DNA from: Candidatus Saccharimonadota bacterium
GTDB lineage: Bacteria; Patescibacteriota; Gracilibacteria; BD1-5; UBA6164
Direction of reading: 5' to 3'
Assembly (NCBI GenBank): GCA_963677765.1
Contig: OY782392.1
Location: 300,001 to 332,000 of the forward strand
DNA length: 32,000 nt
Shown: positions 7,561-30,290 of the stretch, piece after piece
How positions within the stretch are numbered: the first letter of the stretch is position 1
How the letters are laid out: the number at the start of each line of letters is the position of its first letter
Made by a program: the position numbers and the translations under genes
The notes under the pieces: generated by a model
The model's input: the letters and a program-made list of their open reading frames with translations, nothing else
The model's database searches: none
What the model was told of the DNA's origin: nothing

Positions 7561-8133
7561 ATGGCTGTTTCAAAACAAAAAAAAGTTGAGATATTTAACG
7601 AATTAGTTGAAAAATTCAAATCTGCTGAATCAATTGGTTTTTCATCTACAAGTGCACTTAGTGTTGAAGATTTTGCAAAACTAAGAACTTCTTTAAGAGA
7701 AGTAGGATCTACTTATACTTTAGCTAAAAAAACTATTATAGTAAAAGCTATAAAAGAAGCTAGAGATATTGAAATTAACTTATCAGACTTAGAAGGTCAA
7801 ATCTGAGTAGTATGTTCTAATGAAGATGCTGTAGCTGGTTTAGGTAAAGTTAACGATTTCATGAAAGCTATAAATAAAGATGCTGATAAAATGGAATGGG
7901 CATTATCTATATTTGAAGGAGAATTAAAAGACAAAGAAGAAACAAAAATAATTGCTTCTATGCCTTCAAGAGAAACTTTACTTGGAAGATTGGTTGGTTC
8001 TATGAAATCTCCTATTTCTGGAATGGCAAGATTCTTTGATGCTGCTGCTAAAGAACTTGAAACTACTGGAAAAGCAAAAGTTAGTGAATTAGAAGGAAAA
8101 AAAGAAGAAACTTCTGAAGAAGAAGCTAAATAA
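7561..8133 (+). CDS. rplJ: 50S ribosomal protein L10
   Basis: The two track ORFs (7561-7806 and 7861-8133) are in the same frame and are joined through a single TGA=Gly at 7804-7806. The 190-aa product has an L10-like sequence and an acidic C-terminal tail. Confidence 0.9.
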
Positions 8134-8140
8134 TTGATAT

Positions 8141-8280
8141 TTGGTTCATTGATTCCCTATTTTTAGGGAGTCATTAACTAGTTATCAATAAAATAACTAG
8201 AATAGTTCATTGTAGAGCTTGATTCAGTGTCTGTTAAGAACTGAATCTAACGGATATTGAACTAAAATTCTACAATGAAA
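8141..8280 (+). other. Structured rplJ-rplL intergenic RNA element (three nested or adjacent hairpins)
   Basis: Hairpins are gattcccta/tagggagtc (8151-8172) and ctagttat/ataactag (8178-8200). A long-range stem ttcattgtaga/tctacaatgaa (8206-8216 with 8269-8279) encloses gattcagt/actgaatc (8221-8247). Confidence 0.5.
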
Positions 8281-8320
8281 TTTTAAAAAATTTTATTTTA
8301 TATTTTTAATTTTTGCAAAA

Positions 8321-8695
8321 ATGGCTGAATTAACAAAAAATGCACAACAAATTATGGACTTAGTTAAAGAATTAACTATAGTTGAATTAAATGACTTAGT
8401 TACTGCTATGGAAGAAGAATTTGGTGTTAGTGCTGCTGCTCCTGTTATGGTTGCTGGTGCTGGTGCTGAAGGTGGAGCTGATGAAAAATCAAGCTTTAAC
8501 GTTGAATTAACTTCTGCTGGTGCTTCTAAAATCGGTGTAATTAAAGTTATAAGAGAAATAACTGGATTAGGATTAAAAGAAGCTAAAGATATTGCTGATA
8601 ACGGTGGTATGATTAAAGAAGGAGCTTCTAAAGACGAAGCTGAAGAAATTAAAGCTAAATTAGAAGAAGCTGGTGCTTCTATCGAATTAAAATAA
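8321..8695 (+). CDS. rplL: 50S ribosomal protein L7/L12
   Basis: 124 aa: ...[23 protein letters not shown]...[27 protein letters not shown]...[14 protein letters not shown]. No TGA codons. Confidence 0.95.
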
Positions 8696-24992: not shown

Positions 24993-27900
24993 TTATTTAT
25001 TGTCATCTTCTGTCTTTAACCAGTCTGGTATCTTCATTCAATCATCCCATAACTCTGTTGAGTCTTGAGTTTTTTTAGTTTTAGAATCAGAAGTTTTATC
25101 TTCTTTTTTTACAGACTTTTTAGTTGTTTCTTTAGATGAAGTAGTAGATTTATTATTAGACTTAGTCTTGTCATCTTTTTCTGATTTTTCTTCTTTTTTA
25201 TCAGTAGAATTATCATCAATTGATTTATCTAAATCTTTATTATCTTTTTTATCAGATTTTTCATCTGACTTTTCAATACTTCATTTTAACCAATCTGGTA
25301 TATTATCTTCTGAAGTATCTTCTTCTTCGTCTAAATCTATTTTAGTAAGATTATCTAAATCTTCTTTTGTATCCATTTTCGGTAAAGATTCTTCTTTTTT
25401 AATAGAATCAGATTTATTATTAATAGAATCTTTTTTATCTAAATCAGAATCAGAGTTAGAATTTATTTCTTCTTTAGATTTAGAAGATCACACTTTTGTT
25501 AAATCTTTTTTATCTAAAAGGTTTTTAGATTCTTCTTTTTTATCAATTTTTATATCCTGCTTTTTAGGATTTTTTTCTTTAACAATTTCTTTTTCTGATT
25601 CTTTACTCTCAACACCTTCATCTTCATCAAAACTTCCCTTTAACCAATCTGGTATTTGGGATTTAGTTTCAGTTGAAGTAGTATTAGTAGCAGCTTTATC
25701 TAAATTAGGTTTATATGTTTCTACTTTTGTATTATCAATTTTTTTAGATTGTTCTTTATCATTATTTAAAGATATTTTTGTATCATTTTTATTATTAGAA
25801 CTATCTAGTGGTTTATTGATAACTGGATCACTTATTTTATTTTCTTTAAGATTATTTTCCTTAGGTTTAGTATCAAAACTATCATCAAATCATCATTTTA
25901 ACCAATCTGGAACATCTCAAGAATTAGTATTTTTAATATTATCCTTTGTTTCTATATTATCATCTTTTTTGTCTTGTTTATCAGTTCAAGTTAGAGGATC
26001 TTTTATATCATTATTTGATACATTTTCTTTTGGTTTATCATCATAAGAAAACGGATCAATAAATTCATCTTTTGTAGATTCATTATTAGGTGATACTTCT
26101 CATGATAAAGGATCAATATTATCTGATTTTTTTTCTTTTATAGTATCATCTCAAAGAATATCTCATAAATCAGAAATATCGTCTTTTACAGTTGAATTTC
26201 AACTAGATTTTCATCAAGTTTTTTCTGAAACAAATTCTGAAAAAGACTTATTTTTATCTTTATTAACAAGTTTATAATAAATAAAGAACAATACAATTAC
26301 AAATGTAAATAATAATATTATATAAAATATAATTTTTAATATAAACAATATTGCATCAATAACTCATGATCAACCTGTAGTTCAACCGATAACTTCATCA
26401 TTTTTAGCAACCTCTTCTTTTTCTTGTTCAGGTATATTATTAACACCTCAATATACAAATGTATTTAATATTGCCTTGAAATCATTTTTTTCTTTTACAG
26501 ACATATTTGGATCTTCAGCAACATTTCTAAGAATTTGTTTTCATAAAACTACATTTTCTTCTACATTATCATTTTCTGATATAACTTCTAATTTTGCAAC
26601 CAATAATTGATAACAAGTAACATTTTCTCACTCAACTTCTAATGATTCTTCTTCGATACAAGCTATATTAGTTGGTAACATGTTTTTTAATGCAGTTAAA
26701 GCTATTGCTTTTTCTGTTCTATCTGCTTCACCATCAACTAATAATCATTCTAATATATCTATTATTTCTGCAGAAGAAGATAATCATGACTCATCTAAAT
26801 AAGTAGAAAATTCTAAAATAACATTAGTTTTTTCTCTATTATCATTCCATGCTTCTTTTAATCTTTGAACATACATTAATCATTTTAATTTATGTTCTTT
26901 AGGAAAAGAATCTACTTTATTTTTAATTTTTTCTAATTGTAATTTTACTGAATCAGAAACTCATTCAAAAACTATAGAACTTGAATCAATCATTTCATCT
27001 TCCTCAATATATTCTTTTAATATAATTATATCTCTAGAATTTATAACTTTTCAAGATGAATCTTTAGTAAATATTCTTAATTTTTGTTCTCTAAATTCAT
27101 TTAATTCAATTTTTAAAGGATTTCATGAAAAGTAACTATTATCATTCTTGTTATCTTCATCATCATCATTTCATCAATTCAAATCACTATCAATTTCAAT
27201 ATCATAATCTACAACATAATTTTCTGCTTTATCATCAAATGCAAAATATAAGAAAACATTATCAATTTCATCTTTTAAAGTAATAATATTATCTTCTATT
27301 TCATTATTTGAAATAACTGGAAAATCTTGTTTTCTAATATTTATTATATTAGCTACATTTTTTGTAACTTTTTTTGTTATATCTCTTATTTTAGTTCATT
27401 CAGTTAATTTTAATTTAACTAAATGTACATTTTTTGCATCTTCATATGTATAAACAAAAGATCCGTTAGTAGTAATTTTATTTCAATCTCACATATCCCA
27501 TTCATACTCAGCTCAAACTCATAAACTTTTATCAAAGAATATATAAGTATTACCATAAGAGTAATAATCAAAATCTGGCTTTAGTATATTTGATACATTT
27601 ACAGTAACTGTTTTAGTGTTTGAGAATCATTTATTTGATACTTTTACTTTTGCTCTTTTTTCTCAAGAACTATTATAAGTATAAGTAGTTACATTACTTG
27701 TTGTTTCTTTATCATAAAATCAATCCCCATCAAAATCCCAAGAAAATTTTACTTTATTATTTAAATTTTGTCCTAATATATTCTCTGCATTTGCTGAAAA
27801 AGTAACTTCATCACCTATTCAAACAGATGAATTATTTACAACTAAATCTAATAAAGGTGTATTTACATTATCTCATGTAAGAGTGATAAAGTATTTTGAA

Positions 27901-30290
27901 CCTGTTATCTCTTCTGAAATAGATCTTTCTTCATTGTTGTCTTTCATTACTACAACAAAATAGTAATTTCAAGTAATTTTAGGTAAAACAAATGAAGTAG
28001 AATCAGTTTTAGTAGCTCTAAAATCTTGAGGCTCAGGGTCAACATCAGTATAGTAATACCATAAATAAGATTGTATTACACCATCTCTATCTTGAGCTCA
28101 AAGAGCACTAATATTAACAATTACTGGATCAGTTTCAGTGTCTTTTACTCTTACATCTAATCATGATAAAGTAGGTTTAATATTTTCAACTTTTATATTT
28201 ATTGTTTTTGAGTCTTCTCTTCAGTTTTTATCACTTTTTACAACTAATTTTAATTGTTCACAACCTAATTCATCAAATTTTTTATTAAAAGATTGAGAAC
28301 TATAAATAGAACGTCATAAAGTCCAAGAATATGATAATCATGAATTTTGTCATGTAATATCTAAACTTTCTTCTCAAGAAAATGTAAAATTATCTACCCT
28401 GTTAACTAAATATGCTCATTGTCATCCACATGCTCTTGGATCAAATGCAACTTCATTTCATTTAGGATCTTTCAAAGTTATATATGCATAAGGAGAGTCA
28501 GTATCTCAAATATATACATTTCTAGTTAAAGTATTTTCATTATCATTACTATCAATAACTTTTAATTTAACTCAATATACTCATGATTTTTTAAATACAT
28601 GAGAAATAGTTCAATTACTTCAACCTTCTTTTATTCAATCTCCAAAATCCCATTCATAAAATTTTGCCTCTGGAGAATCCGCAATAAATCTTATAGTCTT
28701 ATCTCTTTGCGATACTCTAGGAAAAATATTAAAATCAACGGATAAAATTGATCTAATATCTACCTTAGTATTTTTTTGGTTAACTATTCCTTCAGGATCA
28801 GTTACTTCTAATGTAACAGAATGTTCTCATATAGAATCAAAAGTATAATATCAATTAGAACCATTATAATTAGGTCTATCTAGATTTACTCTGTTTCAAT
28901 CAATTACCCAACTAAACTCTAATTTTCAATCATCAGAATAATCAGGATCATAAGATGAAGATCAATCTAAAAATACTGTATTAGGTCTATGAGAATCTGT
29001 AATACTATGGCTAAATTCAGCTACTGGAGCTCTAGAGTTTATATATATAATTTTTGTATCTATATCTACCTCTCCTGAAGGTTCAGTAACATATAGCATA
29101 ACATTATATATTCATTTTTCTGTGAAAGAATAATTAAAAGTAGAAGAAGATTTATTTAATATTTCTTCATCATTTTTTATATCAATTATTCTCCATGAAT
29201 AAGTTAAATATTCATTTCTAGAAGTAGGATTAGCAGTAAAAGTAAAAGTATCTCACATATATCCTTCATCAGAACTAGCTTTTATAGTAGCTATAGGATT
29301 ACTAACTATTAAATCAAATTCCCTTTTTACAGTTTTTCATTCATTAGTTCTAAGTTCTAGAGTTACATCAAATTCTCACTCATTAGCATATACAACTCTT
29401 TCAACTTTTGGAGCTCAATCATATGTTCTTTCAACTCAATTACCAAAATCCCAACTAGTTCTTGTAAATTTAGTTCAAGATGTAGGAGTAGAACTTGTTG
29501 CATCAAATAATAATCAATATTTTGCTTCTTCTGGTGAAAATTTTAATTCATCTCTATTTCATAGATTATCAGAATTAACTTTTACTATAACGGATGCTAC
29601 TTTTTCCTTTACAGAAACTGTAACTCTTGAAGAAAATGGTAAAACATCAGTGAATCATTGAGAATTTTTATGATTAGATGTTACATCTAAAAATACAGAA
29701 TAATTTCATTCTTCATTAAAAGTATAATTGATAGAAGACCTATTTCACAATACTTTTCTTTTTCATCAATCATTAATCCACCAAGTATAATTATAGTTTT
29801 CTAATTTTGTTCAAGTAGGATCTTCAACATTTCATCTAAGAGTAACTGTTAAAGGAGCATTTCAAGTAGAAGGAAATGATTCTATATTACCTCTGATTTT
29901 TTGTATATTAACTTTGTTTAAATAGTCCTCTATTGAACTAGATATAGTTTGAAATTGAGAAGAGTTTTCAGGATATTTTAATCCTCTTTCTATAGAACTT
30001 TTTAAAGAATTATAGTAATTTTTATTAATCAAATTATCAGGAAGATAATTAAGTCAATTTTTTGCTAACTCTAAAATCCTTGCTGAAACAACCGAGTCTA
30101 TAACTCAGTTTACTTCAAATTTATTTTTTAAATCAATATATTGATCAGTTATTCTATATCTATATTCGTTAAACGTATTTAGATCAGAAGGAGTAATTGT
30201 CGTATACTCAGTATCAGCAGCACTAACATAAGTTGGTGCTATAGCAGATATAATCAATATAAATAATGTAGTTAGTACTTTTTTAAACAT
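24993..30290 (-). CDS. Giant (1765-aa) secreted multi-PKD-domain protein with C-terminal TM anchor and K/D/E/S-rich tail bearing four PDWLK motifs
   Basis: I checked every codon of the frame from 30290 to 24993 and found no TAA or TAG. Signal peptide MFKKVLTTLFILIISAIAPTYVSA/AD. About 8-9 repeats of roughly 90 aa carry PKD signatures (APLTVTL, TSWDFGNG, YEWDFGDG, FSWDFDGDG, YEWDMGDG). These are followed by an acidic helical region, a TM helix (about 26270-26365) and a tail of about 430 aa. Confidence 0.85.

Follow-up and report, generated by a model that had tools for sequence, protein, structure and literature searches.

Few docking motifs are known in bacteria, and the links of the cell surfaces of the Candidate Phyla Radiation (CPR) to the cytoplasm are almost uncharted. 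The C-terminal tip of SSB (DDDIPF) and the C-terminal microdomains of RNase E are short linear motifs (SLiMs) that serve as docking sites on disordered tails and whose partners are known. The polar hubs of Gammaproteobacteria, HubP, FimV and TspA, combine an extracytoplasmic domain and one transmembrane (TM) segment with a long, very acidic cytoplasmic recruitment region, which bears acidic repeats of about 46 amino acids (aa). The C-terminal peptide of FtsZ (CTP/CTC) binds FtsA, ZipA, SepF, MinC, ZapD, SlmA and ClpX. In the Escherichia coli peptide, DYLDIPAFLRKQAD, I374 and L378 play a critical part (PMC4117426). Giant PKD surface proteins, for which surface interactions were proposed, have been described in Vampirococcus lugosii of the Absconditabacteria/Gracilibacteria (PMC8080830). 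The locus considered here lies in a window of 32,000 nucleotides (nt), positions 300,001 to 332,000 of contig OY782392.1 (assembly GCA_963677765.1), from an organism named Candidatus Saccharimonadota bacterium and placed by GTDB in the Gracilibacteria, where UGA is read as glycine. It encodes, on the minus strand, a PKD-domain envelope protein whose C-terminal tail carries four copies of the pentapeptide PDWLK; together with their flanks, these copies probably form a multivalent docking motif.

PDWLK islands and their conservation in Gracilibacteria

Read in its minus-strand frame, the gene product has PDWLK at aa 1461, 1547, 1665 and 1755 (window positions 25896-25910, 25638-25652, 25284-25298 and 25014-25028), and a DNA repeat finder returned the same four copies as 18-nt units (25014-25031, 25284-25301, 25638-25655 and 25896-25913), exactly where a preliminary description of the window had placed them. 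The distances between the copies are 270, 354 and 258 nt (90, 118 and 86 aa); the even spacing noted in that description is thus only approximate in the window (86-118 aa) and is not kept in orthologues, where the spacers measure 21 to 205 aa and their length is not conserved. The composition of the tail predicts 0.0003 PDWLK per tail, even a single copy appeared in only 49 of 200000 shuffles, and any 5-mer present four times was obtained in 6 of 5000 shuffles of the tail; a chance origin of the four copies is excluded. The tail contains five tryptophans, four of them inside PDWLK and the fifth in the sequence ELWDDG just upstream of the last copy.

The first orthologue found was 45% identical, had four copies and occupied a syntenic locus, and a scan of one genome per species yielded 27 Gracilibacteria loci; the orthologues share the gene order SSB, DnaJ, then the gene in question, then LepB and TruB. 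No orthologous tail lacking the motif, which the preliminary description had named as counter-evidence, was encountered: all 23 tails examined (22 with complete C-termini, one ended by the contig end) contain 3-7 copies. A logo built from 109 copies of 24 species, 86 internal and 23 terminal, indicates two classes. The internal class follows the pattern [DES][NED][IV]PDWLKGSF[ST]E[ED], with P and W at 100%, D, L and K at 98-99%, G at 95% and S and F at 84-87%, and the terminal class is the near-invariant ELWDDGMK[IV]PDWLK[TS]DDDK, located 10-29 residues before the stop codon. All 109 copies have W at the aromatic position, and F or Y replaces it in none. The four islands of the preliminary description are real as copies, but the conserved stretch exceeds five residues, and the C-terminal copy belongs to a separate, longer type. 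Compared with orthologues, the islands are 55-84% identical and the spacers 17-40%, as is characteristic of SLiMs; the ectodomain is 53-83% identical. The protein of a divergent UGA=Gly relative with a guanine-cytosine (GC) content of 48% has 1953 aa and ends exactly in ...DDELPDWLK, followed by the stop codon.

The conservation had also been thought to extend to the DNA. The core DNA of the window copies is indeed nearly identical, but these copies share only 18-31 nt, no long tandem array spans them, and codon usage points to the peptide as the level of selection: Ser codons in the motif belong to both the AGY and TCN sets, the Gly residue after PDWLK is encoded by TGA in 59 copies and by GGN in 6 copies across species, and, in GC-rich relatives, 12 PDWLK copies are encoded by 11 different 15-mers. 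The codons thus show that it is the peptide on which selection acts. A tandem-duplication or DNA-level origin was rejected in view of the short shared DNA and the varied codons. Copy number changes by local duplication, as identical adjoining units in some species (L005, L011 and L024) show.

The tail that carries the islands is predicted to be cytoplasmic and disordered, as the preliminary description had supposed. The only TM helix is kept in 26 sequences, and, summed over these, Lys and Arg residues number 19 in the 15 aa before the helix and 63 in the 15 aa after it, a concentration of basic residues from which the cytoplasmic location of the tail is predicted. The composition of the window tail is 45% charged and 17% hydrophobic residues, with a net charge of -26. 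In the AlphaFold 2 (AF2) model of an orthologue, the predicted local distance difference test (pLDDT) score of the tail is <50 except at residues 295-298, 357-358, 418, 462-468 and 546-560; the motif positions of the model (296, 356, 416, 465 and 551) coincide with these locally ordered stretches, DSSP assigns a helix at DWLK and the terminal motif has the highest pLDDT of the tail. Predicted disorder with at most local structure is what is expected of a SLiM-bearing region. On this model, the Gracilibacteria protein has no folded domain in the cytoplasm.

Relation to described systems and recurrence in Chloroflexota

Pfam searches with the window protein returned PKD models only, leaving the tail and the motif unmatched; in relatives, they gave sub-threshold noise to RHH_9 and Lactocin 705 at the motif, and NCBIfam contained no match to it. 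When the motif profile was run against PDB sequences, the sole match was a fortuitous NIPDWLK in GltD (glutamate synthase), and a literature search found no paper describing the motif. The statement that it is not a named domain holds, and neither part of the other refuting condition listed there, a tail predicted to be extracellular with the motif explained by a known repeat family, was observed. The PDWLK motif is probably an undescribed member of the bacterial short linear docking motifs.

The FtsZ peptide resembles the PDWLK island in its acidic flank and in the succession [IV]-P-x-aromatic-L-[KR], and also in its location after a disordered linker, with one copy at the C-terminus. The differences concern the invariant D and W, where FtsZ has A/x and F/Y, and the subsequent G-S-F; furthermore, PDWLK is present in 3-7 copies in the tail of a PKD membrane protein, whereas the FtsZ peptide occurs once, on a tubulin homologue, and the FtsZ consensus D/E-[IV]-P-x-[FY]-[LM]-[RK] fails at the W. 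A search of metagenomes for the FtsZ of the clade, using the GGGTGxG signature written with TGA codons, revealed five FtsZ genes from UGA=Gly organisms with a GC content of 23-31% (L073, L078, L097, L103 and L114), each with ftsA directly upstream. Their tails are of the canonical PAF[LMI] type (DNPDIPAFLRRKAK, EDLETPAFMRKR, EDLETPAFIRKR and EDWETPAFMTKK, with the cores DIPAFLRRKAK, LETPAFMRKR, LETPAFIRKR and WETPAFMTKK) and have no W at the aromatic position, so the possibility that the FtsZ of the clade itself ends in PDWLK was discarded. Three of the four distinct tails carry Thr where Ile/Val is usual, as in ETPAFMRKR. The FtsA proteins encoded on these contigs end in ...FFKDLF in four of five cases and in ...FIKKIF in L097.

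The architecture of the window protein and its presumed logic are similar to those of HubP, FimV and TspA. It differs from them in having, according to Pfam, neither LysM nor the FimV C-terminal domain, in its 12-14-aa invariant peptide, in the lack of sequence similarity and in belonging to another phylum, so the general architecture is only analogous. Conserved islands in unconserved disorder are common to the window protein and to the partner-recruiting SSB tip and RNase E microdomains, which differ from it in sequence, copy number and carrier; the SSB gene located in the window ends in ...EDIPF. The V. lugosii proteins are likewise large, membrane-anchored and PKD-containing and come from the same CPR lineage; the paper describing them mentions neither this family nor any cytoplasmic motif, and the window family, with its well-conserved ectodomain and synteny, is unusually conserved for an adhesin.

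A 32-column motif profile was compared with 1.84 billion representative proteins and produced 64 matches at E<=0.001, about 24 of which are Gracilibacteria-type proteins or fragments, among them the protein of the 48%-GC UGA=Gly relative. The remaining matches are GC-rich, A/P/E-rich proteins with repeated [IVLM]PDWLK after acidic residues, and their named sources are Anaerolineae or Chloroflexota. Proteins of this type contain up to 15 copies, or as many as 17 if the pattern is relaxed to P[DE]W[LIMV][KRQ]. Because the E-values are inflated by internal repeats, the link between the phyla rests on a core of 6-7 residues; the taxonomic range found for the motif is a lower bound, since the profile is too short for a protein with a single copy to score significantly. 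Among the GC-rich genes, the pentapeptide is encoded by many different 15-mers, which again indicates conservation of the peptide. Three main architectures and a few further ones were distinguished. The first comprises N- and C-terminal tetratricopeptide repeat (TPR) domains and a ComEA-like helix-hairpin-helix (HhH) domain in soluble proteins with no TM segment; the second, an N-terminal zinc ribbon and a C-terminal membrane domain, is encoded together with DUF6754 and an ASKHA-fold ATPase (PF13941) in one operon; the third is represented by one protein with PKD, a TM segment and eight copies of APVPDWLK[G/A/P/S/T], four of them followed by G. The copies always lie in parts without a signal peptide. 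Chloroflexota/Anaerolineae proteins such as MCC6905332.1, a 'tetratricopeptide repeat protein', share with the Gracilibacteria family the core, the acidic upstream residues and the placement on the cytoplasmic side in disordered sequence, which in the Chloroflexota proteins consists of A/P/E-rich linkers, and differ in their unrelated folded domains, the variable residue after K and the lack of the ELWDDGM terminal variant. A word-indexed protein search with a 51-column motif profile gave 40 candidates, none of them scoring.

The zinc-ribbon/PDWLK operon is conserved in the Chloroflexota-like contigs L029 (91-8691) and L030 (117-9268), where its genes encode, in this order, a small protein, DUF6754, a pair of polytopic membrane proteins, an ATPase of 577-584 aa with an ASKHA/actin-like fold (PF13941, 'MutL') and a protein of 350-360 aa. 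The PF13941 operon may be a lead to the motif receptor; a literature search on DUF6754 and PF13941 found nothing relevant. The Anaerolineae TPR-PDWLK-HhH genes (L155 10001-15169; L156 10001-13594) have the same neighbours, namely an H+-pyrophosphatase upstream and NDK, radical SAM, DUF2344 and PrsW protease genes downstream, and contain a second repeated unit, DQDAALAWLESLAAKQGA.EEEL.TKPEER.

Probable docking and alternative readings

The invariant islands, the unconserved spacers of free length, the variable copy number, the special terminal copy and the disordered acidic cytoplasmic context make it likely that the islands, which are under strong purifying selection, serve as a multivalent short linear docking motif in the disordered cytoplasmic tail of a conserved Gracilibacteria envelope protein. 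The suggestion of repeated docking sites, contained in the preliminary description, is upheld as far as the SLiM signature is concerned, but the partner itself is inferred. Each island of about 12-14 residues would probably form one turn of helix, opened by Pro and closed by Gly, and would offer I/V, W, L and F, amid acidic residues, to a groove in a soluble partner. The tail would then be a flexible string of 3-7 equivalent sites with one high-information terminal site, and docking might bring a soluble protein of the cytoplasm, by recruitment or clustering, beneath the membrane at the site of the ectodomain. It is conceivable, although the balance leans against it, that the PDWLK box is an ancient cytoplasmic docking motif common to Chloroflexota and Gracilibacteria and read by one conserved receptor, which might be a divisome component or an ATPase of the cytoskeletal or ASKHA type. 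In published rooted phylogenies of bacteria, the Gracilibacteria branch of Patescibacteria is placed as a relative of Chloroflexota.

Several observations weigh against docking. No binding partner of the motif was identified, and both the binding of a protein to it and the same kind of receptor in the two phyla are deduced, not observed. Neither the Gracilibacteria neighbourhoods (SSB, DnaJ, LepB and TruB) nor those of the Anaerolineae TPR genes (H+-PPase, NDK and PrsW) give a functional link. At the motifs, AF2 confidence reaches only about 50-55, and in the single-chain AF2 model of the Chloroflexota protein P0059, where pLDDT is >90 for the TPR domains and about 50-55 for the motifs, the latter are not docked on the TPR domains. 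The topology and disorder of the tail are predictions from simple rules and one model, and the likeness between the Gracilibacteria and Chloroflexota motifs, judged by their short core, may be convergence.

The similarity to the FtsZ peptide, both in the skeleton and in the placement (behind a disordered linker, one copy right at the C-terminus), together with the location of ftsA directly upstream of ftsZ in the low-GC UGA=Gly organisms, would agree with an FtsZ-tail mimic that docks on FtsZ-peptide receptors (FtsA, SepF or similar) and links the envelope protein to the divisome or competes with FtsZ. No division genes are present near the gene, however, and the canonical tails of the five FtsZ genes, set beside the strictly kept W of the motif, indicate that the clade maintains two separately constrained motifs (A-F in FtsZ, D-W here), which makes such mimicry unlikely. 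The same strictness bears on the proposal that the islands are self-associating 'stickers', binding one another or their own chain and driving clustering or condensation of the tail with no separate partner. Multivalency, charged disordered spacers and variable copy number suit this proposal, as does the presence of the Chloroflexota motif on chains with TPR domains, which are typical peptide binders; generic stickers, however, tolerate substitution, while five residues of the motif (P, D, W, L and K) hardly vary in the two phyla (98-100% invariant), the motifs of P0059 are not docked on its TPR domains, and the Gracilibacteria protein has no folded domain in the cytoplasm. Self-association is accordingly rated as quite unlikely.

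The Trp, Leu, Phe, Ile/Val and one Lys of each island, with their weak helical tendency, could also be imagined to dip into the inner leaflet and hold the tail on the membrane, the second suggestion of the preliminary description. It is disfavoured by charge: amphipathic helices of the MinD/FtsA type are expected to be net positive with a high hydrophobic moment, and the FtsA C-terminal helices of two UGA=Gly contigs have charges of +1/+3 and hydrophobic moments of 0.67-0.85, whereas the islands have net charges of -1 to -5 and moments of 0.30-0.55. Anionic bacterial lipids would repel the acidic flanks as well as the invariant Asp and Pro, and the motif recurs in the soluble TPR proteins of Chloroflexota, so that a membrane-interacting role is very improbable. 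Repeated W-containing wall-binding motifs are known in other bacteria, and the carrier is a surface protein, which would suit a reversed topology with a motif binding the cell wall or a host surface; but the signal peptide and PKD domains are N-terminal to the only TM helix, the distribution of basic residues is that of a cytoplasmic tail, and the Chloroflexota carriers begin with cytoplasmic-type TPR or zinc-ribbon modules and have no signal peptide. An extracellular repeat can hardly be credited. There is next to no probability that the islands lack a function, as by-products of low complexity, recent tandem duplication or a DNA-level signal: the low-complexity tail and the near-identity of the core DNA in the window might have suggested it, but the shuffles, the shortness of the shared DNA and the conservation in 24 species under differing codon usage, i.e., the orthologue and codon data, already refute it.

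The probable docking motif is previously undescribed and is attached to a core, syntenic envelope protein of Gracilibacteria, with the core residues also common to Chloroflexota. It provides an experimental handle, as the 14-mer SEIPDWLKGSFSEE and the 20-mer terminal variant ELWDDGMKIPDWLKTDDDK could be used against a proteome of about 1,200 proteins, and its recurrence in Chloroflexota offers an independent system, easier to work with, for the search for the receptor. Should a single receptor be used in both phyla, the motif would define a conserved interaction module that is new, a SLiM system general to bacteria like the FtsZ C-terminal peptide or the SSB tip, tethering envelope proteins, DNA-binding TPR scaffolds and zinc-ribbon membrane proteins to the same hub; it would also be the first functional feature for a core single-copy Gracilibacteria envelope protein and for a large family of unannotated Chloroflexota 'TPR proteins'.

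Architecture and gene call of the PKD/PDWLK protein

The features of the gene are collected in the table. The protein scores well above the Pfam gathering cut-offs and is a PKD-domain surface protein (PKD_4, E-value 1.8e-42, 143.7 bits against a cut-off of 27, in 7 stretches; PKD, 1.8e-34, 118 bits against a cut-off of 23.5). The membrane-proximal part of the ectodomain, modelled on the orthologue P0003, consists of helices only, with pLDDT 82-92, and a Foldseek search with this model found no PDB match at E<=0.001. The juxtamembrane element and the extra island before the last internal copy were missing from the preliminary description and are only partly conserved.

Table. Features of the PKD/PDWLK gene and its product; positions refer to the window, residues to the 1765-aa product.
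Feature	Window position	Strand	Basis or remark
Whole gene	24993..30290	-	1765 aa, membrane protein with one pass; start (ATG) at 30290, stop at 24993-24995
Putative cleavable signal peptide, aa 1-24, MFKKVLTTLFILIISAIAPTYVSA	30219..30290	-	By eye, no predictor: hydrophobic N-terminus, then VSA
Ectodomain with seven PKD-type domains, ~aa 150-960	27411..29843	-	Pfam
All-helical membrane-proximal ectodomain, ~aa 1000-1300	26391..27293	-	AF2 on orthologue P0003
Single TM helix, aa 1314-1339	26274..26351	-	Hydropathy maximum 3.06; AF2 helix
Juxtamembrane element NKDKNKSFSEFVSEKT, aa 1343-1358, consensus NKD.N..F..FI.EKT	26217..26264	-	Regular expression in 14/28 sequences including the window; short AF2 helix
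Predicted disordered K/D/S/E-rich cytoplasmic tail, aa 1343-1765, 423 aa	24996..26264	-	Composition, AF2
Internal copy 1, GDVPDWLKGGFDD, aa 1458-1470	25881..25919	-	Reading frame, repeat finder
Internal copy 2, SQIPDWLKGSFDED, aa 1544-1557	25620..25661	-	Reading frame, repeat finder; Gly = GGA
Extra island KEDLDNLTKID, aa 1642-1652, before last internal copy	25335..25367	-	E[ED]LD.[FLI]TK[IV] in 8/28 sequences including the window; AF2 helix in P0003
Internal copy 3, DNIPDWLKGSIEK, aa 1662-1674	25269..25307	-	Reading frame, repeat finder
Terminal variant ELWDDGMKIPDWLKTEDDNK, aa 1746-1765, then stop codon	24996..25055	-	Near-invariant in 23/23 terminal copies

The window has a GC content of about 22%, and reading UGA as Gly restores long genes across it, where the calling of open reading frames (ORFs) with translation table 11 fails. 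The PKD/PDWLK gene contains 78 in-frame UGA codons read as Gly, and the downstream LepB, whose KRIIGMPGDTL is read through two UGA codons, supports this code, as does the interchange of TGA (59 copies) and GGN (6 copies) for the Gly that follows PDWLK. The only long table-11 ORF of the region is antisense (window 25168-26046, plus strand; 292 aa, S/F/L-rich) and was rejected as an artefact of the low-complexity tail, because the real gene requires UGA=Gly. In public records, the gene is split or mistranslated: P0001 (L001 9040-13924) lacks the N-terminus and has W at every UGA, and in the complete genome CP060226.1 (L153 3915-9068) the locus is broken into products of 927, 360 and 355 aa. Such calls, with W for G and fragmentation, hide the family and its motif in the databases. 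TGA accounts for 71% of glycine codons over nine window genes, for 1 of 12 in L10 and for 0 of 13 in L7/L12 (window 7561-8695); the reassigned codon seems to be shunned in these highly expressed genes for ribosomal proteins.

Viral contigs gave no match coding for IPDWLKGSF, and the sole match of the terminal variant among them was a Gracilibacteria chromosomal fragment. This contig, L154 (IMGVR_UViG_3300024221_000828, 1-900), is filed as viral and starts with the C-terminus of the Gracilibacteria protein, followed by lepB; judging from this content, at least this end is ordinary chromosomal sequence. In two divergent relatives (L157 197-583; L158 1533-3404), a weak or clear T4SS_pilin (PF18895) match is located beside or at the N-terminus of the PKD/PDWLK protein. 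A 128-aa protein, P0023 (L152 510-896), encoded on a standard-code contig with a GC content of 27%, contains two terminal-type motifs, NLWTKDMELPEWLKED and NLWTDDMKIPDWLFSDDEE; its neighbour is a fragment of a polyvalent protein (LPD23 / phrog_13543), so the motif may here be used by a protein of a phage or mobile element.

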